A stretch of 41,561 nucleotides of DNA from Promethearchaeota archaeon (GCA_048938895.1 JBHLLU010000014.1:45390-86950), one strand, 5' to 3'; counted from the first letter of the stretch, positions 21,613 through 41,561 are shown. The notes: generated by a model not told the origin, from the letters alone. A program made the numbers and translations.

Positions 21613-22494
21613 TTATTTCTTTTCTAAAATTTCACGAATTTTGTTTACTATTTTTTTAAAGGCAGTTGCACTTGCATTTTCTGCATTTTTTATAACAAAT
21701 GGTAATCCCTTGTCGCCTTGAATACCAACTTCTAATTCAAATGGTATTTTGCCTAATAATCGTATATTAAAATCTTCTACTGCTTTTTCAACTCCTCCAG
21801 GAGGATAAAGATTAATATCCTTCCCACAGTGAGGACATTTAAATCCAGACATATTTTCAATGATACCAAGAATATTTCTCTCCATAATTTGCGACATCTT
21901 AATCGTTTTTCGAGCATCCATTAGTGCCACTTCCTGAGGGGTTGATACAACTATTACATTTTCATCAGGGATTAACTGTAAAATATCTAATGTTTCATCT
22001 GAAGTACCTGGAGGTAGATCACAGATTAAGTAATCTAATTCACCCCATATTGCTTCCCCCAAGAACTGTCTTACCGCACTCATCTTCATTGGCCCTCTCC
22101 AAATAACTGGTGCATCAGAATTTTCTAAGAGAGATGCCATGCTTATGACCCTTACATTTAAAGGACCATTGATGGGATAAAATCTTTTCACATCTGCATC
22201 AACTCTTGGTTTAAGCTCTGGAGAAACTCCCAACATTTTAAGTACATTTGGTCCTGTGATATCAACGTCTAAAATTCCGACCCTTAAACCAACACTAGCC
22301 AAACTTATTGCAAGGTTTACGGCTACCGTAGTTTTTCCAACGCCGCCCTTACCAGATATAACTACAATTTTATGTTTAATTTTCTCCATGTTCTTTTCTA
22401 TGTTTTTCATCAGTAAATCTTGTTGCTTCTTTCTTTCTTCCTGAATTGTTTCTTTTAGATTAATATCTGGTATTTCCTTTTCTTCTATAATCAT
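21613..22494 (-). CDS. mrp: Mrp/ApbC/NBP35 Fe-S carrier ATPase
   Basis: SGKGGVGKT, WRGPMK, DLPPGTSD, ENMS..CPHC. Confidence 0.9.
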   Translation of the reverse strand: MIIEEKEIPDINLKETIQEERKKQQDLLMKNIEKNMEKIKHKIVVISGKGGVGKTTVAVNLAISLASVGLRVGILDVDITGPNVLKMLGVSPELKPRVDADVKRFYPINGPLNVRVISMASLLENSDAPVIWRGPMKMSAVRQFLGEAIWGELDYLICDLPPGTSDETLDILQLIPDENVIVVSTPQEVALMDARKTIKMSQIMERNILGIIENMSGFKCPHCGKDINLYPPGGVEKAVEDFNIRLLGKIPFELEVGIQGDKGLPFVIKNAENASATAFKKIVNKIREILEKK

Positions 22495-22556
22495 CCACCT
22501 CTTTTTCGAATAGAAATAGGAAAAATTTAAATAATCTCGAATGTTTTTTATAATTG

Positions 22557-22570
22557 TGAATAATTATTCA
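22557..22570. promoter_or_regulatory. TGAAT-N4-ATTCA palindrome (copy 4)
   Basis: TTGTGAAT-AATT-ATTCATAA between divergent mrp and NifX-like genes. Confidence 0.7.
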
Positions 22571-22621
22571 TAATTTATAAAAGTTTTTATTTACTTATTA
22601 AAAAAAAAAGGTTGAAATAAT

Positions 22622-23056
22622 ATGGTAATTGTAGCTATCCCTTCAATGAGTGAAGGTGGATTAAATGATGAGATGAGTCCTCGTTTTGGGAGGTGCCCTA
22701 GCTTTACTTTTGTTGAATTAGAAAAAAATGAAATTAAAGCCGTTAAAACTGTTCAAAACCATGCTGTTAACACAATGGGAGGGGCTGGTGTGGAAGCTAC
22801 GCAAATTGTAGGCAATAACAATACCGATGTTGCAATTGTGGGCTTTTTAGGTCCAAATGCAGCAAATGGGCTTAATGCATTGAATATTAAAATTTTGAAT
22901 GCACCGAATAAAAAGATGACAATTAAAGAAGTCATTGACCTATATATAGAAGGTAAATTAGAACTCTTAAATACGGCAAATGTAGCTTCTCATTATGGTA
23001 TGGGTGGTCGCGGTATGGGCGGTGGTCGCGGTATGGGCGGTGGTAATCGCCCTTAA
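22622..23056 (+). CDS. NifB/NifX family protein with GMGGGR tail
   Basis: RFGRCP.F, GGAG, GPNA. Confidence 0.85.
   Translation: MVIVAIPSMSEGGLNDEMSPRFGRCPSFTFVELEKNEIKAVKTVQNHAVNTMGGAGVEATQIVGNNNTDVAIVGFLGPNAANGLNALNIKILNAPNKKMTIKEVIDLYIEGKLELLNTANVASHYGMGGRGMGGGRGMGGGNRP
22997..23050 (+). repeat. Coding tandem repeat (~18 bp x3, GMGGGR)
   Basis: GGTATGGG(T/C)GGT(GGT)CGC repeated three times. Confidence 0.8.
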
Positions 23057-23093
23057 TTAAGTCGGAGACTAATTATAAAGCAAGTATGAGAAT

Positions 23094-24011
23094 ATGGATA
23101 ACGATAAAGCCAGAGTAATTTGTATCACAGGAGGTAAAGGAGGAACAGGTAAAACTTTATGCGCTGTTAATATAGCAGTTATGTTCAGAAATAATGGATA
23201 TAAAGTGTTACTTTTAGATGGTGATGTTGAAAATCCAAACACATACCTTTTATTGAATGGAAAACTTGAATATAAGTTTGAAGTTCCCTTTTTCTTGCCA
23301 AAAATCAAAGAGGATAAATGTGCTAAATGTGGGATCTGTGCTCAGAATTGTCAGCCACATGCTTTATTATATATCGATAATTCTGTTCCCATTTTAATGT
23401 CTTCTCTTTGCTCTGGCTGCAAATTATGCTATAAAGTTTGCCCAGAAAAAGCAATCGAACAAGACTTTAAAATACTTGGCTGGATATATTCTACTGAAAT
23501 AAATGGGTTATCACTTTCAGTTGGAGAATTAAAGCCCTCAGAAGCTCGCTCAGCTGGAATTGTTGAAGCGCTCCTTGACAAAAATTTAGAGCAGAACTTG
23601 AATAAGTTTGATGTTATAGTATTAGATACTGCACCAGGCGCACACTGTGATGTTGAACTTTTAATTGATAGTGCTGACCTTGTAATTCCTGTTACAGAAC
23701 CAACGAAATTTGGTAAACTGGATTTAAAGAGAATATTAGAATTGATTAAATTATTACAAAAAGAATATAAGGTAATAGTTAATCGATCGTCATTATTAGG
23801 ATTTAGAGACCAGTTTTTAAAAGAACTTAAAGAAGAAAACATAGAAATTTTAGGAGATATTCCGATGGATGAAGACATCGTGAATTCTTATTGTCAAGGA
23901 ACGCCACTCATGGATACTAATGGAAGTTATGATAAAAATGGACCAGGATTCATTGCTTTTAAGAAAATTTATAATCAGTTAAAGGTTTGGCTAAAAAAAT
24001 TGAATAATTGA
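23094..24011 (+). CDS. MinD-superfamily P-loop ATPase with ferredoxin insert (COG1149-like)
   Basis: GGKGGTGKT, DGDVENPN, CAKCGIC, CSGCKLC...CP, DTAPGAHC, VTEPT.FG. Confidence 0.85.
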   Translation: MDNDKARVICITGGKGGTGKTLCAVNIAVMFRNNGYKVLLLDGDVENPNTYLLLNGKLEYKFEVPFFLPKIKEDKCAKCGICAQNCQPHALLYIDNSVPILMSSLCSGCKLCYKVCPEKAIEQDFKILGWIYSTEINGLSLSVGELKPSEARSAGIVEALLDKNLEQNLNKFDVIVLDTAPGAHCDVELLIDSADLVIPVTEPTKFGKLDLKRILELIKLLQKEYKVIVNRSSLLGFRDQFLKELKEENIEILGDIPMDEDIVNSYCQGTPLMDTNGSYDKNGPGFIAFKKIYNQLKVWLKKLNN

Positions 24012-24026
24012 AAAAAAATTTGAGAA

Positions 24027-24953
24027 ATGGAAAAAAAAACAGTTGGAATTCTATCAGGAAAAGGGGGAGTAGGAAAAACATCTCTTACTGCTTCATTGGC
24101 AAGCTTAGCAAAAAAGGACTCAATGATAAATGTCATGGTACTTGATTGTGATGTTGATGCACCAAACTTGGCTATAATTCTTCCACCTAAAAAGGAATCT
24201 GGTATTAATAAAACTGATACTTTTACTACACAAAAAGCAAAATTTTTGGAAGAATTATGCACTAATTGTAAGCAATGTTTTGATGAACATTTCTGTGAGT
24301 TCAGTGCTCTTAATTGGGATAGTTATAATTCTATCCCAAATATTGATTTTTTAAAATGTGAGGGTTGTGGAGCTTGTAAAGTTTTATGTCCTATGCATGC
24401 CTTCGAAATTTATCCTGTAAAGAGTGGTGAAATTGTATCATATCGTAGTAATATGAATTTTACGTTAGTCTATGGAAAAACTCAATTAGGAAGTACTACT
24501 TCTGGAAAATTAGTGACAGATGCAAAAGAATACCTAAAAAATATTGATGATTTTAAAGAAAGTAACTTGATTTTTATAGATGGACCTCCTGGAATTGGTT
24601 GTCCTGTTATTGCGACTGTTTCAAATTTAGATTATGTCATAGCAATTTCTGAACCAACACCATCAGGATTGCATGATTTAATTAGAGTTATTGAAGTAAT
24701 TAAACAATTTAATATCCCATTTGGATTAGTAATAAACAAATCAAATTTAGAAAGTCCATTTCAAGAGGAATTTAAGAAATTTATAAGAGATACAAAATAT
24801 GAAATACTAGGTAAAATTCCATTTGATTTAAAAATTCCAGAAGCAATGTCTTTTGCTAAACCTATTGTAGATTTTGCTCCAGATTCTTTAGCTAGTTATG
24901 CAATTAAAGGAATTTATAATCAATTAAAAAATTTACTGTGGAATAATAGTTAA
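24027..24953 (+). CDS. MinD-superfamily P-loop ATPase with ferredoxin insert (COG1149-like), second paralogue
   Basis: SGKGGVGKT, DCDVDAPNL, CEGCGAC...CP, SGKLV, DGPPGIGCPV, EPTPSGLHD. Confidence 0.85.
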   Translation: MEKKTVGILSGKGGVGKTSLTASLASLAKKDSMINVMVLDCDVDAPNLAIILPPKKESGINKTDTFTTQKAKFLEELCTNCKQCFDEHFCEFSALNWDSYNSIPNIDFLKCEGCGACKVLCPMHAFEIYPVKSGEIVSYRSNMNFTLVYGKTQLGSTTSGKLVTDAKEYLKNIDDFKESNLIFIDGPPGIGCPVIATVSNLDYVIAISEPTPSGLHDLIRVIEVIKQFNIPFGLVINKSNLESPFQEEFKKFIRDTKYEILGKIPFDLKIPEAMSFAKPIVDFAPDSLASYAIKGIYNQLKNLLWNNS

Positions 24954-29654: not shown

Positions 29655-30893
29655 TTAGAAGAGTGCCAATTGCACCTCTTTAAGAAGATCAACAGTAGTG
29701 AATTGATTTTTCCCCCCAGTTCTCAAGTAATTCATTGCTTTTTCAATACCTTTAATAGTTAAATCAAAAGTAGGGATGATTTGTGCAATTTTCATTTTGG
29801 TCCATGACATCCAATCATATTTCACCGGCTCAGGATTCAACCATATCACATTTTTTTTGAAATGGTTAGCAATCTCATTGATATAATAGAGTCCAGGTTT
29901 TTTACTTGTAACATCATCATAAAGGGCACCGTGAGGATTTGCTATTTCGCTACGATGCATTGTTTGATCTCCCACAATTATGACACGATAAGAGTCATCA
30001 TATTTTTTTAAAAAATCTTCGAAATCAATTGCTTGATCTATAGTTCTCTCAGCATTATCATACAAATAATTATAGATACAATTATGGAAATAATAATACT
30101 TAAAATCTTTCCAATGTGAAATATTATTTGCTGCAGAGAATAGAAGATTTACCTGATGTATGTAAATATCCATCGTTCCCCCAACATCCATCAAAAGCAA
30201 AATCTTAATATTATTCTTTTTCCTTTTATTAAAGATTAGTTCAATATCACCACCATTCCGTCCAGTCTCATAAATTGTTTTAGGTAGATCTAACTCATCT
30301 TTTTTACCAATTTCATCTAATTTTTTGAGTCGTTTTAAAGCAATTTTGATCTGTCGAGTATCAATTACTAAATCTTTCCTATAATCCTTAAAAATCCTTT
30401 TCTGAGCGATTCTTAAAGCACTGTGCATATCAGTATCTCCACCGATTCTAAATCCGTCAATATTCAATCCTGAATGCCCGAATTTTGATTGTCCTTGAGT
30501 TCCAATCCATTTATTTCCAAAATTATGTTCACCATCTTGCTCTCGAAGTAGCTTCTTAAATTGTTCTTCCATTTCCTCTAAAGTCATATTCCCAAAAAAT
30601 TCTTTAAAAGCTCCAGGTAAACGGAGGGTTTTTACATCCTTTTGAAGCCATTCCCATATTTCTTGCTTAAGATCTTCTGGAAATTCTAAACCAGCATCTT
30701 TAAAATAATTAGCGAATGCGATATCATAAATATCAAAATGATGCTCATTCTTACAGAGAATCGAACGAGAAATATAATAAAATTCTACCATGTTGTTTAT
30801 CAAACCCTTATTGAGGGCTTCCAATAAAGTCATAAATTCCGTTATACTAACTGGTAGCACATCTTTAAGGTAAAAAAAATAATCTAAAAACAT
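29655..30893 (-). CDS. VWA-domain protein (CoxE-like), MoxR partner
   Basis: LLLMDVGGTM MIDAS-like motif, YYFHNCIY, IIVGD, WLNPEP. Confidence 0.8.
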   Translation of the reverse strand: MFLDYFFYLKDVLPVSITEFMTLLEALNKGLINNMVEFYYISRSILCKNEHHFDIYDIAFANYFKDAGLEFPEDLKQEIWEWLQKDVKTLRLPGAFKEFFGNMTLEEMEEQFKKLLREQDGEHNFGNKWIGTQGQSKFGHSGLNIDGFRIGGDTDMHSALRIAQKRIFKDYRKDLVIDTRQIKIALKRLKKLDEIGKKDELDLPKTIYETGRNGGDIELIFNKRKKNNIKILLLMDVGGTMDIYIHQVNLLFSAANNISHWKDFKYYYFHNCIYNYLYDNAERTIDQAIDFEDFLKKYDDSYRVIIVGDQTMHRSEIANPHGALYDDVTSKKPGLYYINEIANHFKKNVIWLNPEPVKYDWMSWTKMKIAQIIPTFDLTIKGIEKAMNYLRTGGKNQFTTVDLLKEVQLALF

Positions 30894-31050: not shown

Positions 31051-31902
31051 ATGACAGAACAATATCAACAAATTTTAGTAGATTATCCTAGGCCGAAAGT
31101 AAAACGAATTACCCTAAATCGTCCTGAAAAGCGAAATCCCTTAAGTAATATAATTCGAGGGGAAATTTTTGATGCATTGCAGAAAGCAGATATGAATAAA
31201 GATATTCATGTGACAATTATAAGAGGTGCAGGCGTATGTTTTTCTGCTGGTTATGATCTCGGAGAAGATAACCGTGTTAATCGTCCATATTGGACAACAA
31301 CTTCGTATTATGCAAATTGGCCAAGACAAGTAAACCATTTATGGAGTATGATGGCGGATATGGCTAAACCTATTATTGCCCAAGTTCATGGGTATTGTCT
31401 TGCGGGAGGGTCTGAACTAGCCTCTTCATGTGATCTAGTTTATGTTGCTGAGGACGCGCAAATTGGATACCCCGCAGTTAGGAGTATGATGCCCCCAGAC
31501 CTTCAATATCCAACTTATATTATGGGATTGCGTGCAGCTATGGAATTTATGTTAACAGGATCATCAATAAGTGGCATCGAAGCCGTAAGAGTAGGCTTTG
31601 CAAATAGAGCTTTTCCTTTAGAAGAATTAGAAGATAAAACGTTAGAGATGGCGGAGAAAGTCTCAAAAATACCTCCTGATTTACAAATTTTAAATAAAAG
31701 ATCAGTGTGGCAAGCAATGGAAATTATGGGATACCGAACGCAAATAAGAGCCGGATATAATCTTCATACTCTCGGTGGTTATCAGAAATCGTCACAAGAA
31801 TTTATGAAACAACTATATCAGGAAGGGTTAAAAAAAGCTTGGAGTGATCGAGATGGTAAATGGGGTGATTATAGAACCTCAAAAAACAATGAAGAGAAAT
31901 AG
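31051..31902 (+). CDS. Enoyl-CoA hydratase/isomerase family protein
   Basis: ITLNRPEKRN, FSAGYDL, KPIIAQVHGYCLAGG.ELA..CD. Confidence 0.9.
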   Translation: MTEQYQQILVDYPRPKVKRITLNRPEKRNPLSNIIRGEIFDALQKADMNKDIHVTIIRGAGVCFSAGYDLGEDNRVNRPYWTTTSYYANWPRQVNHLWSMMADMAKPIIAQVHGYCLAGGSELASSCDLVYVAEDAQIGYPAVRSMMPPDLQYPTYIMGLRAAMEFMLTGSSISGIEAVRVGFANRAFPLEELEDKTLEMAEKVSKIPPDLQILNKRSVWQAMEIMGYRTQIRAGYNLHTLGGYQKSSQEFMKQLYQEGLKKAWSDRDGKWGDYRTSKNNEEK

Positions 31903-31960: not shown

Positions 31961-32812
31961 TTAAGTTGGGAATTTTAATTTTTCTATAGCAATTTCTAAG
32001 TCCTTTTCTTTCTTTATAAGGACACCTAAAAACGGAACTCCTTTTTTCAATTCATCAATAGTAATCCCACTCTTCAATAGCACTCCAATCCAATCAAGAA
32101 GTTCAGAAGTAGAAGGTAATTTACGCATCTTTGTTATAGCTCTTAAAGCATAAAAATGCTTTAAACATTGTTCTAATAAATTTTCTTTTAAGTTTGGATA
32201 ATGAAGATTACAAATATCGGCCATAAATTCTCTAGAAGGAAACTCAATCCAATGGAATACACATCTTCTTAGGAAAGCATCAGGAAGCTCTTTTTCATTA
32301 TTAGAAGTTATAATAACGATTGGTCTGGTTTTAGATTTTATAAACTCTTTAGTTTCTTTAATATAAAACTCCATAACATCCAATTCTTGAAGTAGATCGT
32401 TTGGAAATTCAATATCAGCTTTATCAATTTCATCTATAAGAAGAACCACCTGTTCATTTGAATCAAATGCTTCCCCTAATGGCCCATAAGTAATATAATC
32501 ATGAATATTATTAACATCACGATCTTCACAACCAAATCTACTATCATTCAATCTTTGGACAGTATCATACATATAGCATCCATCTATAGCTTCAGTTGTA
32601 CTCTTAATGTTCCAGATTATCAGATTTTTTCTTAAACTCAATGCTATCGCGTGAGCTAACATAGTTTTGCCTGTTCCAGGCTCTCCTTTCACAAGTAAAG
32701 GACGCCCAAGTGCAATAGATACATTAACGATATTTTTTAATTGGGGATCTGCTAAATATTTAACAGTATCTGTTTTTACGTCTCCTTTAAATTTATTAAA
32801 AGTAGCATCCAT
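31961..32812 (-). CDS. MoxR family AAA+ ATPase
   Basis: GEPGTGKT, LLIDEIDKAD, ITSNNEKELPDAFLRRC. Confidence 0.9.
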   Translation of the reverse strand: MDATFNKFKGDVKTDTVKYLADPQLKNIVNVSIALGRPLLVKGEPGTGKTMLAHAIALSLRKNLIIWNIKSTTEAIDGCYMYDTVQRLNDSRFGCEDRDVNNIHDYITYGPLGEAFDSNEQVVLLIDEIDKADIEFPNDLLQELDVMEFYIKETKEFIKSKTRPIVIITSNNEKELPDAFLRRCVFHWIEFPSREFMADICNLHYPNLKENLLEQCLKHFYALRAITKMRKLPSTSELLDWIGVLLKSGITIDELKKGVPFLGVLIKKEKDLEIAIEKLKFPT

Positions 32813-32959: not shown

Positions 32960-34054
32960 ATGCCCAATATTACATCTCTAATAACTCGAAGAATTAAGCC
33001 TATATGTGCAGTCTGGGAAATTACGTTAAGATGTAACAGCAATTGTATTCATTGTGGCTCAAAAGCGGGGGAAAGTCGTCTTAGTGAGTTGAGTACTAAT
33101 GAGGCTTTAAACTTAGTAAAAGAATTACATGATTGTGGTTATAAGGGGGTTGCGTTAATGGGCGGAGAACCTTTAATTAGAAAAGATTGGTATGAAATTG
33201 CTAGAGAAATAAAAAAACAAAAAATGGATTTATCGATTGTTACCAATGGATTAAATTTAAAACAACAAAGTCAAAATCTGAAAAAAGTAAAGCCAGATTG
33301 TGTTAGTTTAAGTTTAGATGGAGCTACTCCAAAAGTTCATGATTATATTCGGGGAGTTCAAGGATCATTTAAAAAAACACTCGAAGCAATTGAATTACTA
33401 AAGGATTTAAAAATACCTACAAGTGTTATCACAAGTGTTAATAAAATCAACCTTAAGGAATTGAATCTAATTAAGAATTTACTTCTTGGCAGAAATATTG
33501 CCTGGCAAATTCAAATATGTGTTCCCATTGGTCGTTTCCCTAAAGATTTAGTTATAACAAGAGAAGAATTTTATACATTAGCGTTATTTATAGCAATAAA
33601 TCAAAAAAAATACTCATCGAGAAGATTACCTTTAATAGGTGCCCATTGCCTTGGACATTTCTCGAGATTCATACCAAATTTAGGGTTAAGTCCATGGGTT
33701 GGATGTCAAGCCGGATTATCTGTATTAGGAATACAAAGTAATGGAAATATCAAGGGATGCTTAACTCTCCCCGACAAATATATTATAGGAAATGTACGAT
33801 CTAAGACTTTAAAGGAAATAGTGGAAAATTTAAGAGCCCAAAAGAAACTACTACCGAGTATGTGTAAAAATTGTGATTTAGTAAAATCATGCAGAGGTAC
33901 ATGTTTAGGAACTGCTTATGCTCTCAAGGATCAATACTGTCTAAGAGCTATTGAAAAAGATATTTTTAATGTAGAGCAATTATCAATTAAGAGAAAATTA
34001 GATTCCACCTATTCAAAAATTAGAAATTTTTATTATAATTTAATTATCAGATAA
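32960..34054 (+). CDS. Radical SAM/SPASM peptide maturase (splicease/PlpX-like clade)
   Basis: VWEITLRCNSNCIHCGSKAG, GGEP, AWQIQ..VP.G, W.GCQAG...LGI..NG.IKGC, CKNC.....C...C...C. Confidence 0.85.
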   Translation: MPNITSLITRRIKPICAVWEITLRCNSNCIHCGSKAGESRLSELSTNEALNLVKELHDCGYKGVALMGGEPLIRKDWYEIAREIKKQKMDLSIVTNGLNLKQQSQNLKKVKPDCVSLSLDGATPKVHDYIRGVQGSFKKTLEAIELLKDLKIPTSVITSVNKINLKELNLIKNLLLGRNIAWQIQICVPIGRFPKDLVITREEFYTLALFIAINQKKYSSRRLPLIGAHCLGHFSRFIPNLGLSPWVGCQAGLSVLGIQSNGNIKGCLTLPDKYIIGNVRSKTLKEIVENLRAQKKLLPSMCKNCDLVKSCRGTCLGTAYALKDQYCLRAIEKDIFNVEQLSIKRKLDSTYSKIRNFYYNLIIR

Positions 34055-34074
34055 ATAGAGGTGAAGTTTCAAAA

Positions 34075-34338
34075 TTGTTTAAAGATTTATTTCAAATATA
34101 TAAAATTGGTAAAGATTTGGGATTAAGTAAGAAAGAAGTAAAAAGCTTATCCCTATTTGGCAATAGCAAACACCCCGTCTTATATATTATCTTAATGATT
34201 GTATCAATTGTTGCAACTGTAATTTTAATATTCTTTTTAGGTATTCTAGCCTTCAGAAGGATATATCCCTCGGGAGCATTATATTCATCCGTTAACGAGA
34301 AGGATTTCAAACGAAATAAAGGGATTAACTTAAGATAA
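34075..34338 (+). CDS. Putative membrane-anchored precursor peptide 1
   Basis: GAGGTGA RBS + TTG; IGKDLGLSKKE leader, hydrophobic helix, YPSGALYSSV..KDFK. Confidence 0.75.
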   Translation: MFKDLFQIYKIGKDLGLSKKEVKSLSLFGNSKHPVLYIILMIVSIVATVILIFFLGILAFRRIYPSGALYSSVNEKDFKRNKGINLR

Positions 34339-34385
34339 TTAGAAATTGTAAGATTTACGATAGAGAGAAATGTGAAATTTAGAAA

Positions 34386-34685
34386 ATGTTCAAAAATTTA
34401 TTTAAGGTATATGAAATTGGTCGAGAAATAGGTTTAACCAAGAAAGAAATCAACAGATCCTTTTCTTCTGGAGATGAGACTCATAGTTTCAAAAATCAAT
34501 TCATTTCTTCTATTATTTTGGTAATCCTTTTTATTATCATTGCTGCTACAATTTATATTCTTACCATGCCTATTCATAATAGTACTCCACCCACAAATAG
34601 TACGTATCCAAGTGGGATAAGGTATTCGACTATAAGGATTAAAGATTTTAAGAAAAAATTAAAATATTACATTAAAGTAAAGTGA
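34386..34685 (+). CDS. Putative membrane-anchored precursor peptide 2
   Basis: IGREIGLTKKE leader, hydrophobic helix, YPSGIRYSTI..KDFK. Confidence 0.75.
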   Translation: MFKNLFKVYEIGREIGLTKKEINRSFSSGDETHSFKNQFISSIILVILFIIIAATIYILTMPIHNSTPPTNSTYPSGIRYSTIRIKDFKKKLKYYIKVK

Positions 34686-34715
34686 ATTATTGAATTTGGA
34701 GATGAAAAAATAAAT

Positions 34716-34967
34716 TTGTTTAGAAGTTCTTTATATTTATCCCAAATTGGTATAGAATTAGGATTAAGTAAGAAAGAACTAAAAAGTTTATCTCAATATG
34801 GTGAATTTAAGCATCCTTTTTTATACGGGATTTTAATTATTTTATCAATTTGTGTAATAGTGGTTCTAATATTGTTAGGTATTTATATTGAAAGAAGTAC
34901 ATATGCTACGGGATCTTATTACTCTAATGTAAAAAGAAAGGATTTCAAAAGAAGAAAAATAATTTAA
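34716..34967 (+). CDS. Putative membrane-anchored precursor peptide 3
   Basis: GGAGATGA RBS + TTG; IGIELGLSKKE leader, hydrophobic helix, YATGSYYSNV..KDFK. Confidence 0.75.
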   Translation: MFRSSLYLSQIGIELGLSKKELKSLSQYGEFKHPFLYGILIILSICVIVVLILLGIYIERSTYATGSYYSNVKRKDFKRRKII

Positions 34968-35010
34968 TTAAGATTTTAAATAAGCATTGAAATGTAAATC
35001 CTCTTAAAAA

Positions 35011-36333
35011 ATGAAGTTAAATGTAGGTTGTGGAAAGAAATTTGATCCAGAATATTTTAATATAGATTTATATGAGGAACTAGTTGCAGATAAGTTAATG
35101 TCTGCGATTAATCTAGATTTCGAAGACAACTCATGTGAAGAAGTTAAGGCAATCCAGATCATTGAACATTTATCATTTTTTGAAGCTATATATGCTTTAA
35201 ACGAATTTTTTCGCGTTTTACAGTTGAAGGGAAAATTAATTATTGAAATCCCTGATCTGATAAGAGCTTGTCAAGCTTTTTTAAATTCTAATAATGAACA
35301 AAAAAAAGAGGTTTTAGGATGGATTTATGGTGTACCAGATAAAGGTTTACAACACAAATTCTGTTTTCCTGAGTATTTGTTGACTGAATTATTAGAAAAT
35401 ACTGGATTTACTAATATTAAAACTTCAAAATATACGAATCTTGAAACAATTCCTATTTTAAGATTTGAATGTTATAAACCCGAAAGTTGGGAAAACGCTG
35501 AAATTTTCCAGATCTTAGCAATCATGCATAAAATTTTACAATCTGATAACCATGTTGATTTTACTAATTCTCTTTTAATTAAGGAACAAGAAGATCTTTT
35601 ATCTTTATGTCAAATTAGATTACTGGAATTTCAAAAAAAGAAAAAAAAAGAAATATTATTTGACATGTTCATCGAATCATTGATAAGATGGCCCTACTTG
35701 GTTAAAATATTATTAGAAGTGCTAAATGCTAGTTATCCAATTTTAAAAACAGATATTAAGCGTATTTCTTATGTAGCAGATCTCTTAATTCGCATAGATT
35801 TTCCAAATGTTTTATGTAATTTGCTGAAAGAAGCACCTGATTATCCTGGAACCCAAAGAATCGCATTCTTTTCAATCGAATCTTTTGCTAGAGGCATTGT
35901 AAGAAGTTTGATTTATATAACTGAGGGTAAAAATAAGTTAATAAAAAAACTTGAAGATCAATCTACCCAGATTGAATATCCTGAAATCATTTTTTTTTCT
36001 TCAAAAATTTTAGAAAAAAAGGCATCAGATTATTTTTATCTAGGAATCAAAGCTTTTTATAAAGAAAATTATACTATTGCATATAATCGTTTCCTCAGAG
36101 CTATTAAACTTTATAGAGACGATTTTTGGTATTTTTGGAATCTTGCTAAAATTTTAGTCATATTAAATCGAAAAACTGAAGCAATTAGATATTATAAAAA
36201 AACTGCTAGGTTGGTCAAATTAACCAAAATTAAAGATAAAAAAACAATCCAAAGTGAAATCAAAAAAGAACTGTATTCAGTGAAAAACAATAAAATTTCT
36301 ACTAAAGGATTCAGACCAATTTTATCTGTTTAA
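35011..36333 (+). CDS. Class I SAM-dependent methyltransferase with C-terminal TPR region
   Basis: KLNVGCG, NID, IIEHL, EFFRVL..KGKLIIEIPD; C-terminal YFYLG...AY..F..AI.L......WNLA.......AI.YY. Confidence 0.75.
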   Translation: MKLNVGCGKKFDPEYFNIDLYEELVADKLMSAINLDFEDNSCEEVKAIQIIEHLSFFEAIYALNEFFRVLQLKGKLIIEIPDLIRACQAFLNSNNEQKKEVLGWIYGVPDKGLQHKFCFPEYLLTELLENTGFTNIKTSKYTNLETIPILRFECYKPESWENAEIFQILAIMHKILQSDNHVDFTNSLLIKEQEDLLSLCQIRLLEFQKKKKKEILFDMFIESLIRWPYLVKILLEVLNASYPILKTDIKRISYVADLLIRIDFPNVLCNLLKEAPDYPGTQRIAFFSIESFARGIVRSLIYITEGKNKLIKKLEDQSTQIEYPEIIFFSSKILEKKASDYFYLGIKAFYKENYTIAYNRFLRAIKLYRDDFWYFWNLAKILVILNRKTEAIRYYKKTARLVKLTKIKDKKTIQSEIKKELYSVKNNKISTKGFRPILSV

Positions 36334-36475
36334 TCTTACCTTTAATCTTCTGATCAATTCCTAATTATCTTAAATATCTTTATGAAAAATATAAATAAAA
36401 TTTAAATAATTAAGGAGTAAACCCTACTTATCTAAATTTATTAGAAATTACATAGATTAAAGGAATGTGTATATT

Positions 36476-36868
36476 ATGTCAAAAGAAGATGAAATGTTAG
36501 AAGAATTAAAAAAAATTAGAGAAGTTCTCAGTCCTCCTCCACCACCACCGAAACCAAAAAATTTACTTCAAGAATTCAAAGAATTTATAAAACAATATAA
36601 AGTAATGGGCCTTGCTGTCGCATTTATCATGGCTCTTTACCTTGGTCGACTTGTCTCTGCCGTAGTACAAGCATTTATTTCACCAATTCTAAACAATCTA
36701 TTCTTGGTAATTGGTTTTTTAAAAGATTCGACAGTTAATGCAGACCCAGCATCATATCCATTATCGTTTAACACCACTTTATTCATTAGTGAATTAATCA
36801 CCTTTATAATTGTAGCGTTTGTTATCTTCCTCTTAGTAAAGTTGACTAAACGAATTGGGATTGAATAA
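36476..36868 (+). CDS. mscL: MscL-family mechanosensitive channel with N-terminal helix and poly-Pro linker
   Basis: EFKEFI..YKVMGLAVAFIM, LV..VV...ISP, FISELITFIIVAFVIFLLVK. Confidence 0.8.
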   Translation: MSKEDEMLEELKKIREVLSPPPPPPKPKNLLQEFKEFIKQYKVMGLAVAFIMALYLGRLVSAVVQAFISPILNNLFLVIGFLKDSTVNADPASYPLSFNTTLFISELITFIIVAFVIFLLVKLTKRIGIE

Positions 36869-36906: not shown

Positions 36907-38082
36907 TTATTCACATTGCCCTAGAATAGTAACTGAACATACCGCATAAGCTCCGCCAAGATTATGAGCTAAGCCAATTTTTGCCTTAGGAACTTGTCTT
37001 CCTTCAGCTCTTCCTTGAAGCTGTTTAGTGACTTCCTGTACCATTCTACATCCTGTACTTCCAATTGGGTGTCCAAAAGATTTGAGACCCCCACTCGGAT
37101 TTATTGCTGTTTCTCCATCCCAATTAAAGGTACCATTCTTCAATTCTTCGGCTGCTTTTCCTTGATCACAAAATTGAAGGTCTTGGCAATTTAGTAATTC
37201 AGTTATAGTAAAACAATCATGGACTTCTGCCAAATCTATTTCTTTTCTAGGATTTGTAATTTCTGCCTCTTTATAAGCCATTTTTGCAGCATCAACTGTA
37301 GCGGGAGCAGATATAAACTTAAAATCCGTATCATACCAAGGATAAGCAGTATGTACAGAGAGAGAATTCGATTTAACCAATACGTAATCATCAGAATGGG
37401 CATAAGATTCTGCTAATTCAGGACGAGTTAAGATTAAAGCCGCTGAACCGTCGCTCATAGCACAACAATCAAATCTTCCTAAAGGATCTGCAATCATTGG
37501 AGCGTGTAAAGCTTGTTCTAAAGAAATTTTCATTTTAAAATGAGCTTTTGGGTGGTAAAATCCGTTTTCATGGTTTTTAACAGCTACACGAGCTAAATCC
37601 TCTTTTGTCCAACCATATTCATGGAAACTTCTTGTAGCAAGAAAGCAAAACATTGCTGGTGCTGAAGGTCTTGGTAAGACAGGGTGACCCATAACAGTCG
37701 TGCCTGGTAGACCTCTTCCTCCCTCATCCATTAACTTTTCCACTCCACATGCCATTACAACATCATATGCACCAGAAGCAACACCAAAACATGCATTACG
37801 GAAAGCATCCATTCCTGAGGCGCAATAATTTTCACATCTTGTAACTGGTTTACCACCTAATCTTAGTGAATCTTCTAAAGTGGTGCCAGAAACCCCAGTA
37901 AAAAAATAATAAACCCCAAGCCATGCTGCATCGACTTCCTCTTTTGTAATACCTGCATCTCTCATCGCACCCTGAGTTGATTCAAAAAGTAAATCTTCTT
38001 TACTTTTATTCCATAATTCCCCATACTTAGTCGCTTCACATCCAATTACTGCTACTTTATCTTTAATACCATGAGTAACCAT
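36907..38082 (-). CDS. SCP-x-type thiolase (acetyl-CoA acetyltransferase family)
   Basis: ENYCASG, VKNH, EVHDCF, GHPIG, HNLGG. ATG 38082 chosen; the track uses TTG 38091. Confidence 0.9.
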   Translation of the reverse strand: MVTHGIKDKVAVIGCEATKYGELWNKSKEDLLFESTQGAMRDAGITKEEVDAAWLGVYYFFTGVSGTTLEDSLRLGGKPVTRCENYCASGMDAFRNACFGVASGAYDVVMACGVEKLMDEGGRGLPGTTVMGHPVLPRPSAPAMFCFLATRSFHEYGWTKEDLARVAVKNHENGFYHPKAHFKMKISLEQALHAPMIADPLGRFDCCAMSDGSAALILTRPELAESYAHSDDYVLVKSNSLSVHTAYPWYDTDFKFISAPATVDAAKMAYKEAEITNPRKEIDLAEVHDCFTITELLNCQDLQFCDQGKAAEELKNGTFNWDGETAINPSGGLKSFGHPIGSTGCRMVQEVTKQLQGRAEGRQVPKAKIGLAHNLGGAYAVCSVTILGQCE

Positions 38083-38202
38083 AATGTCCAACTCATTTTT
38101 AGACTGTTAAATATTATATTATTATTGTTAACTGAATTACAATGAAGAAGATGAATTTACTTTTAAGATTTCTGATATATATCCTTAGTAAAGAGAATTT
38201 GC

Positions 38203-39858
38203 TTAATTCCGAATTTCTTGAAACCTACTTAATACCCAGTTTTTATCTAAAGCAGCGATAAAGGGTGCAAACCTGGGTCCTCTTTCAGTTCCAAGAAATA
38301 ATTGATATAACATTTCAAAGAACTCATTCATTTCCTTACGTGATATTCCAGATTTTTCTCTTAGGATTATCATTTTCTGTTTGATTTCATCTTCTGTCCA
38401 TTTTATTCCTTCAAGTTCTTGTCCCAGTTCCATTACCGCATTTCGAATCTTTTCACTGAATTTATTCAAAATATCTGAGGGGATTTTTTCAACTAATTTT
38501 ATCTTAAGATGTTCTGGACAGTATTCTGAATTTATCCAATTCCTAGCTTTAATTAACCTTTCTTGAATATGGTCAAAAATTGTATTAGTAGGTTTAGAAT
38601 TCAATATTTCTGTATCTAGCAATTTTTGAATTGCTTGTTCAGTACCTTCCTTATCAGGCGATACTAATTGACTTAAGATGATTGCTGTCTGATAATCAAG
38701 CTGAAATCCTCTGTATTCAGGAACTTTATTATAGAATATAATTTCATAACTTCTTCGAATTGCATGAAGTTCGGATGAATCGGAAAACGAATCAACACCG
38801 TAGTAAATTCTTTGAGCTTTATCATATTCTGAAATATAGCTTGGCATTTTATCTAGTCCCAGAATGATTCGTCTTTTCGGAGGGGTTTTAAGATACATAT
38901 ATTTCAGAACTTCTGGTTCAGCATATTTCAACCACTTAGTTGGTGTGAATCCTATAAATCCTGAACTTGTCATATCACCAAAATCTTTCTTACCTTCAGA
39001 ATAACCGACCCACTCATTCCAAAATCCATATGGACCTTTATGGTTTAATACAGATTCTATTACTTCAATACAACTGTCTCGAGATCCTCCTGGGGTAGCA
39101 TGATCTTTTCCATACGGTTCAAAATGTACATTTAGAATATACCATATAGATAACCATTCAAGGCGCCAAGTAAGTTTAGCTTTACTAATATCAGACCATC
39201 CATCATTCTCACATTCGGAACAATAGTAATGGACGATATATTTATTTATATCAACTTCTAAGGCTTTGGTTGTACCAATCCGATTGCATTGTTCACATAA
39301 TGGATTAATAGGAATCCAATCTTCCGGAAAAGGATTTTCTGCTCTATATTTATTTAAAATATCTCTAATCTCTTCCTTTTTATTAATGAGTTCGATTACT
39401 AAATTTTTCATTCTTTCTTGTTGGTATAGCTCATGAGTTTTAATGATCTGGATATCTTTTCCAAACTTTGGCATTGGTACTCCAAAATCCTTCCAGAAAT
39501 AATCAACCCAGGATTTATAATTAGCGTTTGGAGAGGGTACATCGATTAACCGCCAGTTAATATATTGCTTCGCTTTTTTAGGATTTTTAAATACATTTAC
39601 TTGACCAGATCTCCCCTTCCATGGATCTGAAGTATATAGGATTAAATGATGAATTGCTTTATATCCCCGATTTTGAAGTTCATTTACAACGGAATTTGTA
39701 AGTACAATCTCCCCCCTTAAACGTCCAACATGTTGCTGACCTGATACGGATATACCACAATTACAATTAAATTCTTTTAGATCCTCCCAGCTTTCTATTA
39801 AATCATCTGTTAATTTATCAATCCAATGTTGCGGTTGCTTAGTTGATTCAACTGTCAT
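38203..39858 (-). CDS. lysS: Lysine--tRNA ligase, class I
   Basis: HWID, GISVSG..HVG, KLTWRLEW, EPYGKDH, GPRF..F. Confidence 0.92.
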   Translation of the reverse strand: MTVESTKQPQHWIDKLTDDLIESWEDLKEFNCNCGISVSGQQHVGRLRGEIVLTNSVVNELQNRGYKAIHHLILYTSDPWKGRSGQVNVFKNPKKAKQYINWRLIDVPSPNANYKSWVDYFWKDFGVPMPKFGKDIQIIKTHELYQQERMKNLVIELINKKEEIRDILNKYRAENPFPEDWIPINPLCEQCNRIGTTKALEVDINKYIVHYYCSECENDGWSDISKAKLTWRLEWLSIWYILNVHFEPYGKDHATPGGSRDSCIEVIESVLNHKGPYGFWNEWVGYSEGKKDFGDMTSSGFIGFTPTKWLKYAEPEVLKYMYLKTPPKRRIILGLDKMPSYISEYDKAQRIYYGVDSFSDSSELHAIRRSYEIIFYNKVPEYRGFQLDYQTAIILSQLVSPDKEGTEQAIQKLLDTEILNSKPTNTIFDHIQERLIKARNWINSEYCPEHLKIKLVEKIPSDILNKFSEKIRNAVMELGQELEGIKWTEDEIKQKMIILREKSGISRKEMNEFFEMLYQLFLGTERGPRFAPFIAALDKNWVLSRFQEIRN

Positions 39859-39930: not shown

Positions 39931-41118
39931 CTAATCTCGTTGGCCTAAAATTGTAACTGAAGCAACACTGAACGCACCGCCCAAGTTATGACATAATCCC
40001 AATTTGGCATCAGGGACTTGTCTCCCTTCAGCACGTCCTTGTAATTGTTTCGTAATTTCTTGAAGCATTCTACATCCCGTCGAGCCAATTGGATGTCCAA
40101 ATGATTTTAACCCACCACTAGGATTAACAGCGGTTTCACCGTCCCAGTTAAAGGTTCCATTTTTCAATTCTTCTGCAGCCATACCACGATCACAGAATTG
40201 TAGATCTTGGTCATTGATAAGTTCTGTTATAGTAAAACAGTCATGAACTTCAGCTGCATCAATTTCTTTTCTCGGATTTGTAATTCCAGCCTCTCTATAG
40301 GCCATTTCAGCTGCCTTGACTGTAGATGGAAAGCTTGTAAAGTCTGCTCCAGGTCCATTTGGGGGCACATACCATGGAAAATTTGTTCTTGTTGAAATTT
40401 GATTCGATTTTACAACAATATAATCATCAGCATGAGCATAACTTTCTGCTAATTCAGGACGAGTTAAAATTAATGACGCTGCACCATCTGACATTGCGCA
40501 ACAATCAAAACGTCCTAAAGGATCAGCGATCATTGGTGCTTTCATGGCTTGTTCAATGGAAATTTTACTTCTGAAGTGTGCTTTCGGATGATATGAGCCA
40601 TTATCATGATTTTTCACTGCTACTCTCGCAATATCTTCTTTTGTCCATCCAAATTCATGAAAACATCTAGTTGCAGCCATCGAAAACATCGCTGGAGCAG
40701 AGGGTAATGGTAGAACAGGATGCCCAAAAATTTTAAATCCAGGTAATCCACTTGAACCCTCATCCATAAGCTTCTCGACACCACATGCGAGAACCACATC
40801 ATATGCACCGCTAACAACACCAAAACAAGCATTTCGAAATGCATCCATTCCAGAAGCACAATAATTTTCAGTACGAGTTATGGGAATACCGTCAAGTCTT
40901 AAAATATCTTCTATAGTAGCACCAGACATACCAGTAAAGTAATAATAGATCCCCGCCCATGCGGCTTCGATTTCTTCTTTCTTAATACCAGCATCTTTCA
41001 TCGCGCCTTGAGTTGCTTCAAATAGTATGTCTTCTCTTCCCTTATCCCAGAGCTCTCCATATTTAGTCGCATCACAACCAATAATTGCGACCTTATCTTT
41101 AATGCCTTTTACTGTCAA
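39931..41118 (-). CDS. SCP-x-type thiolase, close paralogue of 36907-38082
   Basis: Same motifs; GGAGGTGA RBS favours TTG 41118 over GTG 41127. Confidence 0.9.
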   Translation of the reverse strand: MTVKGIKDKVAIIGCDATKYGELWDKGREDILFEATQGAMKDAGIKKEEIEAAWAGIYYYFTGMSGATIEDILRLDGIPITRTENYCASGMDAFRNACFGVVSGAYDVVLACGVEKLMDEGSSGLPGFKIFGHPVLPLPSAPAMFSMAATRCFHEFGWTKEDIARVAVKNHDNGSYHPKAHFRSKISIEQAMKAPMIADPLGRFDCCAMSDGAASLILTRPELAESYAHADDYIVVKSNQISTRTNFPWYVPPNGPGADFTSFPSTVKAAEMAYREAGITNPRKEIDAAEVHDCFTITELINDQDLQFCDRGMAAEELKNGTFNWDGETAVNPSGGLKSFGHPIGSTGCRMLQEITKQLQGRAEGRQVPDAKLGLCHNLGGAFSVASVTILGQRD

Positions 41119-41132
41119 TTTTTTCACCTCCT

Positions 41133-41561
41133 CTAAAATCTCCCTCTTACTGGTCTACATTTCCAATAGTAGTTCATAAAGTCTCCTCCTTCATGTTCTT
41201 TTCTGAAGGTTAATTCCACTTCCATTCCGATTTTTACATTTTCCTCTGGATTCTCGATTTCAGTCATGTTTAGTAGAATTCTTCCGCCATCATCAAGATC
41301 TATTACACAACGTGGAATTGGGGTATCCATATAAGTTCCTCCGACTAAATGATCAAGTGTATATGTAAATATTGTTCCCTTCAGTGTTAATTTGACGAGT
41401 TCCATTTGATCATCGGCTCTACAGACAATACAAGAACGGAATGTACTTGGATATTGAACGGTCCCACAATTCTTACATTTATTGCCATACATTTTGTAAA
41501 CTGAAGGAGTATCACGCCACATAGTCACAGCTGAACTTTTTCTTACATATCTATCTTTTTC
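41133..41561 (-). CDS. Zn-ribbon + OB-fold (DUF35) domain, 5'-partial; likely C-terminus of a longer thiolase-associated protein
   Basis: CKNCG..QYP....CIVC, GTIFTYT, IGMEVELTFRK; frame is open to the window edge. Confidence 0.8.
   Translation of the reverse strand, partial: EKDRYVRKSSAVTMWRDTPSVYKMYGNKCKNCGTVQYPSTFRSCIVCRADDQMELVKLTLKGTIFTYTLDHLVGGTYMDTPIPRCVIDLDDGGRILLNMTEIENPEENVKIGMEVELTFRKEHEGGDFMNYYWKCRPVRGRF

Follow-up and report, generated by a model that had tools for sequence, protein, structure and literature searches.

Positions 32960-36333 of the stretch analysed here (41,561 nt from a Promethearchaeota archaeon, referred to below as the window; G+C content 29%, source genome 4.65 Mb in 174 contigs) hold a cassette of five co-oriented genes on the + strand: a radical S-adenosylmethionine (SAM) enzyme with a SPASM domain (rSAM), three short peptides, and a methyltransferase joined to tetratricopeptide repeats (TPRs). 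We read this cassette as an operon for post-translational modification, of the kind that yields peptides that are made by ribosomes and then post-translationally modified (RiPPs), in which a splicease-like enzyme would act on anchored or exported peptides, and we give this reading a probability of about 0.5. The figure covers the statement as a whole and not its single parts, and all of the evidence is computational. The cassette occupies one locus in its genome. The gaps between the open reading frames (ORFs), 20, 47, 30 and 43 nt, agree with a preliminary description of the locus, which had reported five co-oriented genes separated by 50 nt or less:

32960-34054, + strand: candidate rSAM/SPASM maturase, 364 amino acids (aa), from its Pfam domains
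34075-34338, + strand: candidate precursor paralogue 1, 87 aa, TTG start
34386-34685, + strand: candidate precursor paralogue 2, 99 aa
34716-34967, + strand: candidate precursor paralogue 3, 83 aa, TTG start
35011-36333, + strand: methyltransferase-TPR protein, 440 aa, from its AlphaFold2 (AF2) fold and invariant residues

The three peptides are paralogues, 40-54% identical to the first. They have in common M1 F2, I11 G12, G16 L17, K19 K20 E21, G29 and H33 and, towards the C-terminus, Y64, G67, Y70 S71 and K76 D77 F78 K79, a sharing far beyond chance. Alignment upholds the earlier picture of three paralogues of 83-99 aa with a common leader, a variable hydrophobic middle and a Tyr-containing core, laid out as follows:

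9 nt upstream of the TTG of peptide 1, + strand: GGTG, read from the sequence
34105-34137, + strand: leader of peptide 1, IGKDLGLSKKE, from the alignment
residues 34-60 of peptide 1, + strand: hydrophobic segment
34264-34308, + strand: core of peptide 1, YPSGALYSSVNEKDF, then a basic tail
34416-34448, + strand: leader of peptide 2
34605-34649, + strand: core of peptide 2, YPSGIRYSTIRIKDF
34746-34778, + strand: leader of peptide 3
34902-34946, + strand: core of peptide 3, YATGSYYSNVKRKDF

For peptide 1, AF2 predicts helices at residues 2-14 and 19-24, a membrane helix at 34-63 and, over the core, a low-confidence coil. In the window's peptides the second core Tyr stands in the contexts L-Y-S, R-Y-S and Y-Y-S. 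Across 44 peptides of the window's family Y64 and Y70 are invariant, with a P-x-G turn between them; both had been called invariant in the preliminary description, which holds for this family and fails beyond it, the first Tyr being missing in two relatives (L094 and L098) so that only the second is universal. The hydrophobic segment of the family measures 19-38 residues (median 24), and its flanks have median charges of +3 (the preceding 15 residues) and +5 (the tail that follows). Judged by these charges, the core may be displayed at the surface, it may be a tail-anchored core facing the cytoplasm, or a cationic peptide may be released.

Neither the window's peptides nor the precursors tested from relatives match any Pfam or NCBIfam family, and the named homologues of the former are all 'hypothetical'. 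A profile made from the peptides recovers 406 clusters at 90% identity from 5.8 billion proteins, in the window's lineage. We rejected the idea that the peptides are chance or mis-called ORFs, since conservation of their reading frame extends over 75 genomes and 406 clusters; on a reading of the coordinates, stop codons inside profile matches are the genes' own stops, the profile overrunning short C-termini. Conservation is confined to the leader and the 15-residue core, and the stretch between them varies from nothing to a folded domain. Such conservation of leader and core around a freely varying part is the signature of leader-guided maturation.

The peptides are closely tied to rSAM. Searches of 400 genomes from the phylum, one with the peptide profile and one with the rSAM protein, gave peptide matches in 90 genomes at E<=0.01 and in 75 at E<=1e-4, and rSAM matches in 110 at E<=1e-40. 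At these stricter levels rSAM was present in 73 of the 75 genomes with a strong peptide match; the remaining two are G244, where the match lies at a contig end, and G393, which is 52% complete. Linkage was assessed in 40 loci of about 5-19 kb taken around rSAM orthologues. The peptide profile matched 29 of these, each time beside rSAM, and the core motif Y..G..Y..[IVLA]...[DEN][FL] matched 63 times in six-frame translation; these matches are spread over 30 of the 40 loci, and every one is on the rSAM strand and within a few kb of rSAM. The methyltransferase-TPR gene was found in 37 of the 40 (in L068 it lies 5 kb off); of the three loci without it, two end with the contig and one has a distant rSAM. 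Within the window's family, the final peptide ORF shares 4 nt with the start of the methyltransferase gene in 13 of 20 loci. Furthermore, two natural fusions of methyltransferase and rSAM/SPASM occur among the proteins listed, P0228 (728 aa) and P0257 (834 aa); the window's enzyme shows 40% and 36% identity, respectively, to their rSAM halves.

From co-location and natural fusions we conclude that rSAM, peptides and methyltransferase form one functional unit. The preliminary description had proposed a RiPP-like system to which the methyltransferase belongs, and had named peptide homologues living mostly without rSAM as the pattern that would speak against it. That pattern was not seen: homologues mostly come with rSAM (73/75), which adjoins them in every peptide-bearing locus examined, so the proposal largely stands, and the place of the methyltransferase in it is confirmed by its presence in 37 of 40 loci and its fusions to rSAM. 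Taken together, the peptides are probably substrates of rSAM.

For the enzyme itself, Pfam reports a Radical_SAM domain (1.7e-29, residues 20-169), a SPASM domain (2.9e-7) and nothing else. Its cysteine motifs are these:

33032-33055, + strand: CxxxCxxC motif of rSAM, C25/C29/C32
33704-33940, + strand: seven SPASM cysteines, C249, C267, C302, C305, C311, C315 and C327

All of these cysteines are invariant among 39 orthologues, and rSAM is a complete radical SAM/SPASM protein. By Pfam its Radical_SAM domain begins at residue 20 and an N-terminal RiPP recognition element (RRE) is absent; Pfam and NCBIfam searches of the window gave no PqqD-like RRE match in the five genes or their neighbours either. 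An RRE is not obligatory for RiPPs. As rSAM has none, the leader would have to be read by rSAM itself or by the TPR domain.

Among NCBIfam models, TIGR04103 ('nif11-class peptide radical SAM maturase 3') ranks first for rSAM with 202 bits (cut-off 725), and the runner-up is TIGR03913, at 157 bits against 592. TIGR04103 scores 155-302 bits over the whole rSAM clade described below plus outgroups; TIGR03913 scores 157-221 bits across the clade and is the best model in some relatives. Also below their cut-offs are TIGR03962 (3.7e-33, 115/265 bits), PqqE (4e-20, 72/381 bits) and TIGR04133 ('rSAM_w_lipo'; 2e-43, 149 bits, cut-off 425). AhbD and NirJ-type tetrapyrrole models match at 1e-36 to 1e-42, and the cross-linking maturases WgkB, mycofactocin MftC, PqqE and DynA at 1e-20 to 1e-36. 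The precursors and the enzyme clade fit no curated family. From these scores rSAM belongs to a TIGR04103/TIGR03913-like supergroup, and the system is probably not of a wholly new kind; with such an enzyme, and with an x-Tyr-Gly core in most lineages, the earlier claim of a new system went too far. PlpX is the founding tyramine splicease, and we take TIGR04103 to be the model of the PlpX subclass (IPR026482), an equation that the literature searches did not confirm. A passage of PMC11002830 assigns PlpX to a SPASM subclass that accompanies Nif11/NHLP precursors.

The last gene gives sub-threshold Pfam matches only (Methyltransf_11, 0.018, 16.1 vs 21.2 bits; TPR_2, 3.6e-4, 20.9 vs 27 bits). Its AF2 model (predicted local distance difference test score, pLDDT, 92.1; predicted template modelling score 0.89) divides into three parts:

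residues 1-159: class I methyltransferase fold
residues 160-330: helical domain
residues 331-430: three canonical TPRs

The top Foldseek matches to the methyltransferase are 3l8d, 2p8j and 1vlm (E about 1e-5). With VIA-align, residues 1-159 superpose on 3sm3 with Z 13.8 and a root-mean-square deviation (rmsd) of 3.0 over 150 aa, and residues 335-429 on the idealised 3-TPR protein 1na3 with Z 13.6 and rmsd 2.1 over 86 aa. The C-terminal TPRs also resemble the peptide-clamping TPRs of Sti1, Sgt2, Tah1 and PP5 (VIA-align), although helical repeats readily reach middling Z values and such matches prove no function. Structural neighbours found by the two programs are generic methyltransferases and TPRs only, families absent from the lists not being informative, and the structures nearest to the methyltransferase domain are small-molecule and tRNA methyltransferases. 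G6, G8, D19, D27, E52 and H53 are invariant in 37 orthologues, with G6, G8 and D19 as the SAM-binding residues. On the predicted fold, the last gene is thus a class I SAM-dependent methyltransferase fused to TPRs. The MftM model matches it at E 0.091. A profile of the methyltransferase recovers 348 clusters (50% identity, E<=1e-30) from 1.84 billion representatives. The methyltransferase clusters of the protein atlas are placed in Archaea, mostly Promethearchaeota, with one cluster in Thermoplasmatota. In one further protein, P0200 (790 aa), a methyltransferase domain matching the profile is joined to family 2 glycosyltransferase domains, so the methyltransferase module is also used in unrelated contexts.

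An rSAM alignment scan of one genome per prokaryotic species gave 80 named loci, and 126 rSAMs were placed in a FastTree phylogeny with Shimodaira-Hasegawa (SH)-like supports only. This tree holds no bona fide splicease, and none could be placed in it since the 14 control genomes searched contain no true TIGR04103 member. One clade of 92 rows (SH-like support 97) holds all rows linked to the methyltransferase or to the motif, except L154, an outgroup row labelled by regular expression. The methyltransferase is absent from all 28 lowest-ranked loci (L133-L160). The regular-expression labels also miss some precursors: Myxococcota cores ending in N-L, leaderless Helarchaeota peptides, and GC-rich Elusimicrobia ORFs hidden by longer overlapping frames. 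Carriers of the clade are Thor-, Hod-, Hermod-, Hel- and Heimdallarchaeota, Thermoplasmatota, two DPANN lineages (Undinarchaeota and Nanohalarchaeota), Elusimicrobia, Syntrophia and Myxococcota; the label of an Asgard system was therefore too narrow. Within the clade, precursor architecture tracks rSAM phylogeny:

(i) window's family, 26 rows, support 100: leader, one hydrophobic segment, core Y-P-x-G-x-x-Y-S-x-V/I-x-x-x-D-F, basic tail
(ii) Thorarchaeota-like: longer N-terminus, layout as in the window's family, core Y-x-P-G-x-x-Y-G/A-S-I-x-P-x-D-F
(iii) Thermoplasmatota, two tandem rSAMs and a methyltransferase: soluble precursors of 57-126 aa with leader L-G-x-K-L-G-L-x-x-x-x-I, about 20 residues, then core G-P-P-x-Y-P-G-x-x-Y-G-T-V/I-S-I-x-D-F at or near the C-terminus
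(iv) Hod-, Hermod-, Hel- and Heimdallarchaeota, Undinarchaeota, Nanohalarchaeota and Thermoplasmatota, 22 rows, support 99: multi-pass membrane proteins of 120-170 aa with leader as elsewhere, G-Y-P-F/Y following the first segment and x-Y-G-V-Y close to the C-terminus
(v) Elusimicrobia: shorter methyltransferase; leader, hydrophobic stretch with a lipobox-like Cys at its end, linker, core Y-P-C-G-T-K/R-Y-Y/F-T-V-S
(vi) Syntrophus and Smithellaceae: no methyltransferase nearby; leader, signal-like segment, Kunitz/BPTI domain, core Y-P-V-S-K-Y-G-G-V-S/G-I/L-R-D-F
(vii) Myxococcota: two rSAMs, methyltransferase, repeated P-P-P-Y-A-P-G-T-x-Y-G-L-V units

There are 1 to 7 precursor copies per locus. 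The Kunitz/BPTI domains (Pfam 1e-13 and 1.3e-4, both above cut-off) lie in the Syntrophus and Smithellaceae precursors at L099:5553-5981 and L104:5577-5981, with the rSAM gene directly after. Several loci depart from the simple layout. Two leader-core units share a single ORF at L088:5291-5671 and three cores follow a single leader at L092:5612-5869, both in Thermoplasmatota, and helix-plus-core units are repeated at L128:8055-8363 (Myxococcota). At the Helarchaeota locus L074 (10521-11034, - strand) three leaderless, soluble, Lys/Pro-rich peptides of 46-65 aa lie between methyltransferase and rSAM, with a G-Y-P-F/Y motif towards the N-terminal end and Y-G-V-Y towards the C-terminal end. Two genomes of the window's genus carry two cassettes each, G177 (L047, L048) and G225 (L043, L059), and the paired cassettes fall in two distinct rSAM subclades of 8 and 18 rows.

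In the mechanism that we propose, the precursor would consist of an N-terminal two-helix leader (..IGxELGLxKKEI..), a hydrophobic anchor or signal of ~24 residues, and the C-terminal core Y-P-x-G-x-x-Y-S-x-(V/I)-x-x-x-D-F. Cytoplasmic rSAM would read the leader helix directly and act on the second, universal Tyr, the likeliest reaction being excision of a tyramine unit at x-Tyr-(Gly/Ser), as in spliceases. The methyltransferase-TPR protein would add a methyl group while its TPR domain grips the peptide; in the lineages where the methyltransferase is absent, rSAM alone must suffice. The modified core would then be inserted or exported by the general secretion machinery, and the product would stay anchored at the cell surface or be released, a ketoamide that inhibits proteases being a plausible form. 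Behind the leader, the precursors of Syntrophia and Elusimicrobia have a hydrophobic segment that resembles a signal peptide or lipobox, so that general signal peptidases and Sec could stand in for the protease and exporter that are missing. Among the window's genes there is indeed no dedicated protease or ABC exporter. The preliminary description had noted the lack of RRE, protease and exporter, correctly for the window, and had concluded that the products may remain membrane proteins; given the signal- or lipobox-like segments of relatives, this is one option. A bolder proposal is that of an undescribed class, in which a RiPP leader precedes an anchor, signal or lipobox, cytoplasmic rSAM and methyltransferase-TPR edit a Tyr core before display or release, and the core is also borne by Kunitz and multi-pass proteins; we consider it possible, and on balance unlikely.

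Which reaction rSAM performs is less certain than that the peptides are its substrates. Gly follows the universal Tyr in 19 of 25 Thor-like cores, 8 of 10 Thermoplasmatota cores, both Syntrophia cores (2/2) and 18 of 26 'YGVY'-type precursors. Outside the clade, rSAMs of Methanosarcina, Methanothrix and uncultured bacteria adjoin small or Gly/Tyr-rich ORFs that carry several x-Y-G-V/I motifs (L138:5564-5722; L148:5591-5875; L129:7058-8420; L144). At the outgroup loci the density of Tyr-Gly is 0.54 per 100 aa near rSAM vs 0.21 farther off. From their sequences, these x-Y-G-V/I loci look like uncharacterised spliceotide-type clusters: small outgroup ORFs with x-L-Y-G-V/I motifs resemble published splice tags, which in a part of PMC10533398 contain P-L-Y-G-L-P and A-G-Y-G-V-V. 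Moreover, spliceotide ketoamides inhibit proteases, according to an extract of PMC11626197, and a leader helix activates binary spliceases, according to one of PMC11414181. The top rank of TIGR04103, the x-Tyr-Gly motif, the outgroup motifs and the Kunitz fusions together make a splicease-like reaction at the second Tyr the likeliest chemistry. Tyramine splicing proper at that residue is put forward tentatively, at somewhat less than even odds.

Several observations weigh against this scheme. Ser, not Gly, follows the universal Tyr in 43 of the 44 cores of the window's lineage, none of the three window peptides has the Tyr-Gly of the x-Tyr-Gly splice motif, and all four Elusimicrobia cores have Tyr-Tyr or Tyr-Phe. 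The enzyme lies outside the PlpX-family threshold (202 vs 725 bits for TIGR04103) with TIGR03913 nearly level, so that on sequence scores its assignment to the spliceases is not established. The other conserved Tyr, found in the Tyr-Pro of most lineages, is unexplained by the splicing model, and we know of no spliceotide cluster with a methyltransferase-TPR partner. In several lineages the core is predicted to end up on the far side of the membrane from the leader, and modification would then have to precede insertion; the flanking charges of the window's family (medians +3 and +5) do not settle the topology. Among the outgroup loci, only 7 of 33 have a nearby ORF with at least two Tyr-Gly. 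Support for the pairing from a predicted complex of rSAM, its three clusters and SAM with peptide 1 is weak: the score was 0.51, none of the 3 controls exceeded 0.00, and a pass at or below 0.60 counts as weak. In the calibration, 58 of 80 solved complexes passed the mark, as did 2 of 110 mismatched pairs, and passes at 0.60 or lower came from just 7 of the 80 solved complexes and from both passing mismatches; the job used its own alignments and ligands, unlike the calibration set. The runs agreed in at least 54% of contacts, with a partner pLDDT of at least 56. The enzyme-peptide modelling suggested in the preliminary description therefore separates peptide 1 from the controls, as a weak pass only.

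The main competitor keeps the same substrates and changes the radical chemistry: rSAM would form a Tyr cross-link (cyclophane, Tyr-Tyr or Tyr-X), or carry out epimerisation or hydroxylation, with the methyltransferase capping the product. Models for cross-linking are the triceptides, the ryptides and the Glu-Tyr link made by PqqE. The invariance of Y64 and Y70 around the P-x-G turn in the 44 window-family peptides would suit such a link, as would the near equality of TIGR03913 with TIGR04103 and the matches to WgkB, MftC, PqqE and DynA. Ser, Tyr or Phe after the second Tyr also fits this chemistry better than a strict x-Tyr-Gly rule, and the two or three tandem rSAM paralogues of Thermoplasmatota and Myxococcota suggest more than one reaction. 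However, no partner residue is conserved family-wide, the first Tyr being missing in L094 and L098, and in the 'YGVY'-type relatives the two Tyr motifs lie 40-80 residues apart with membrane segments between them. The triceptide motif (aromatic-X-X, linked at the beta-carbon of the third residue) was not found either: the third residue is S, T or N in the window and Gly in relatives (Y-G-G in L098 and L099, Y-A-G in L094, Y-T-G in L093), so this position is not conserved as a cross-link partner, and Gly two residues after the second Tyr excludes a three-residue cyclophane to a beta-carbon in these lineages. We regard other radical chemistry on the same peptides as a serious alternative of fairly low probability.

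A different view is that the peptides are not substrates and serve as membrane subunits, tethers or regulators, with a helix-turn-helix-like N-terminus, of enzymes acting on a lipid, a cofactor or another small molecule. The tetrapyrrole models of the AhbD and NirJ type (1e-36 to 1e-42), the small-molecule and tRNA methyltransferases nearest to the methyltransferase domain, and a Sigma70_r4-like match to the L088 leader (3.6e-5, weak and below cut-off) point in this direction. Yet soluble relatives of 46-65 aa have no membrane segment, conservation is limited to the leader and a 15-residue core that occurs in tandem repeats, the top rSAM models are peptide maturases, and the core is appended to unrelated passenger domains, which makes a non-substrate role very unlikely. 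Least probable of all is a pathway like those of PQQ or mycofactocin, in which the peptides would give rise to a small peptide-derived cofactor, the core being modified, excised and methylated while the membrane segment merely holds the precursor: conservation of the core is very strong and spans two domains of life, the mycofactocin rSAM model matches at 3.7e-33, a methyltransferase is present, and the 'G-V-Y' of YGVY-type relatives recalls the C-terminus of the mycofactocin precursor, but no peptidase or further tailoring gene lies in the window or the examined loci, each locus has 1 to 7 precursors with variable flanks and tails, cores are fused to Kunitz domains or repeated in one ORF, the Tyr is not C-terminal, and TIGR03962 reaches 115 bits of the 265 at its cut-off.

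Around the cassette, no neighbour gene is conserved across the 40 loci. No RNA run was listed as covering this region. The neighbours are of a housekeeping type (an AAA/VWA pair, a class I lysyl-tRNA synthetase, thiolases, MscL and an enoyl-CoA hydratase), and those upstream are:

29655-30893, - strand: VWA (CoxE-like) protein, from a domain match
31051-31902, + strand: enoyl-CoA hydratase, between the VWA and AAA genes
31961-32812, - strand: AAA ATPase (MoxR-like), divergent from the rSAM gene

AAA, VWA and MscL were considered as parts of the system and rejected, being found in only 8/20, 6/20 and 5/20 window-family loci and in no distant loci; the AAA/VWA pair near the cassette is probably local synteny. 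The MscL homologue (36467-36868, + strand; Pfam 1.5e-16), just downstream of the cassette, has an N-terminal extension of ~30 residues with a six-proline run. Farther along, two thiolase paralogues and a ChsH2-type gene with an oligonucleotide/oligosaccharide-binding fold (DUF35-like) lie at 36907-38091, 39931-41127 and 41133-41528 (- strand), and these thiolase/DUF35-like genes flank the class I lysyl-tRNA synthetase (38203-39858). At 21613-24953 there are three P-loop ATPases of the NUBPL/Mrp/ParA type, two with inserted 4Fe-4S ferredoxin motifs.

Literature searches (Asgard RiPPs and radical SAM enzymes, SPASM precursors, spliceases) found no description of this cassette, the cluster lists and supplements of Scott et al. 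2022 lying outside their coverage, and no paper joining spliceotides or spliceases with Asgard, Thor or Thermoplasmata. As far as searched, the leader-anchor-core family, its Tyr-Ser form in the window's lineage, the conserved and sometimes fused methyltransferase-TPR partner and the presence of the core on multi-pass and Kunitz proteins are undescribed. Each component is of a known kind: the RiPP maturase is an rSAM/SPASM enzyme that probably belongs to the splicease supergroup, and its partner combines TPRs with a class I methyltransferase. If the proposed reading is right, rSAM peptide editing would reach membrane-anchored and exported proteins across Asgard, Thermoplasmatota and DPANN archaea and several bacterial phyla, and a leader placed ahead of a general secretion signal would explain a RiPP system that has no protease or exporter of its own. 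If the reaction is tyramine splicing, it would amount to natural backbone splicing of membrane or secreted proteins in the closest archaeal relatives of eukaryotes, at an unreported Tyr-Ser site; a splicease that tolerates Ser after Tyr, or is paired with a methyltransferase, would widen the toolbox for placing ketoamides in proteins. For experiments, the soluble 57-aa precursors of Thermoplasmatota are an easy place to start. For annotation, the gain is a precursor family without a Pfam or NCBIfam model (406 clusters) and a methyltransferase-TPR family of about 350 clusters.

Four groups of known systems invite comparison. Mycofactocin (MftA/MftB/MftC, MftM) and PQQ (PqqA/PqqD/PqqE) biosynthesis have, as proposed here, an rSAM/SPASM enzyme acting on a Tyr of a short peptide and a methyltransferase in the pathway. 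Their RRE proteins (MftB, PqqD), peptidase and C-terminal Tyr are lacking in the cassette, whose scores fall below the family cut-offs (TIGR03962 115/265 bits, which together with the missing RRE and the internal Tyr places it outside mycofactocin) and whose precursors are multiple, variable, membrane-anchored paralogues. The TIGR04133 family also has a SPASM enzyme; its name, 'rSAM_w_lipo', we take to point to a lipoprotein partner, and the Elusimicrobia precursors are lipoprotein-like. The score differs, however (149 bits vs 425), and the cassette's precursors are defined by a leader ahead of the signal and by the Tyr core. In the TIGR03913 family, according to parts of PMC12114271, a SPASM enzyme and small partner proteins share one operon as in the cassette, whose peptides match neither DUF1842 nor DUF1843 and whose enzyme stays under the cut-off of 592.

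The closest resemblance is to the spliceotides (PlpX/RhaX), for which clusters have been predicted in bacterial and archaeal genomes (an extract of PMC11626197). In both, an rSAM-SPASM enzyme without a fused RRE stands beside one or several tandem precursors, and the best curated model for the cassette enzyme is again TIGR04103, yet at 202 vs 725 bits. Tyr-Gly followed by a branched or hydrophobic residue is shared by most lineages of the cassette clade; the window's peptides have Tyr-Ser instead. The cassette leader is helical in the AF2 model, like the activating helix of binary spliceases (a passage of PMC11414181), and the Kunitz fusions among relatives parallel the protease inhibition by spliceotides (the extract of PMC11626197 cited above). 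The cassette differs in having neither a Nif11/NHLP leader nor a Y protein. In its precursors an anchor, signal or lipobox separates the leader from the core, or the protein is a multi-pass one, and it adds a conserved Tyr-Pro motif and a conserved, sometimes fused, methyltransferase-TPR protein.

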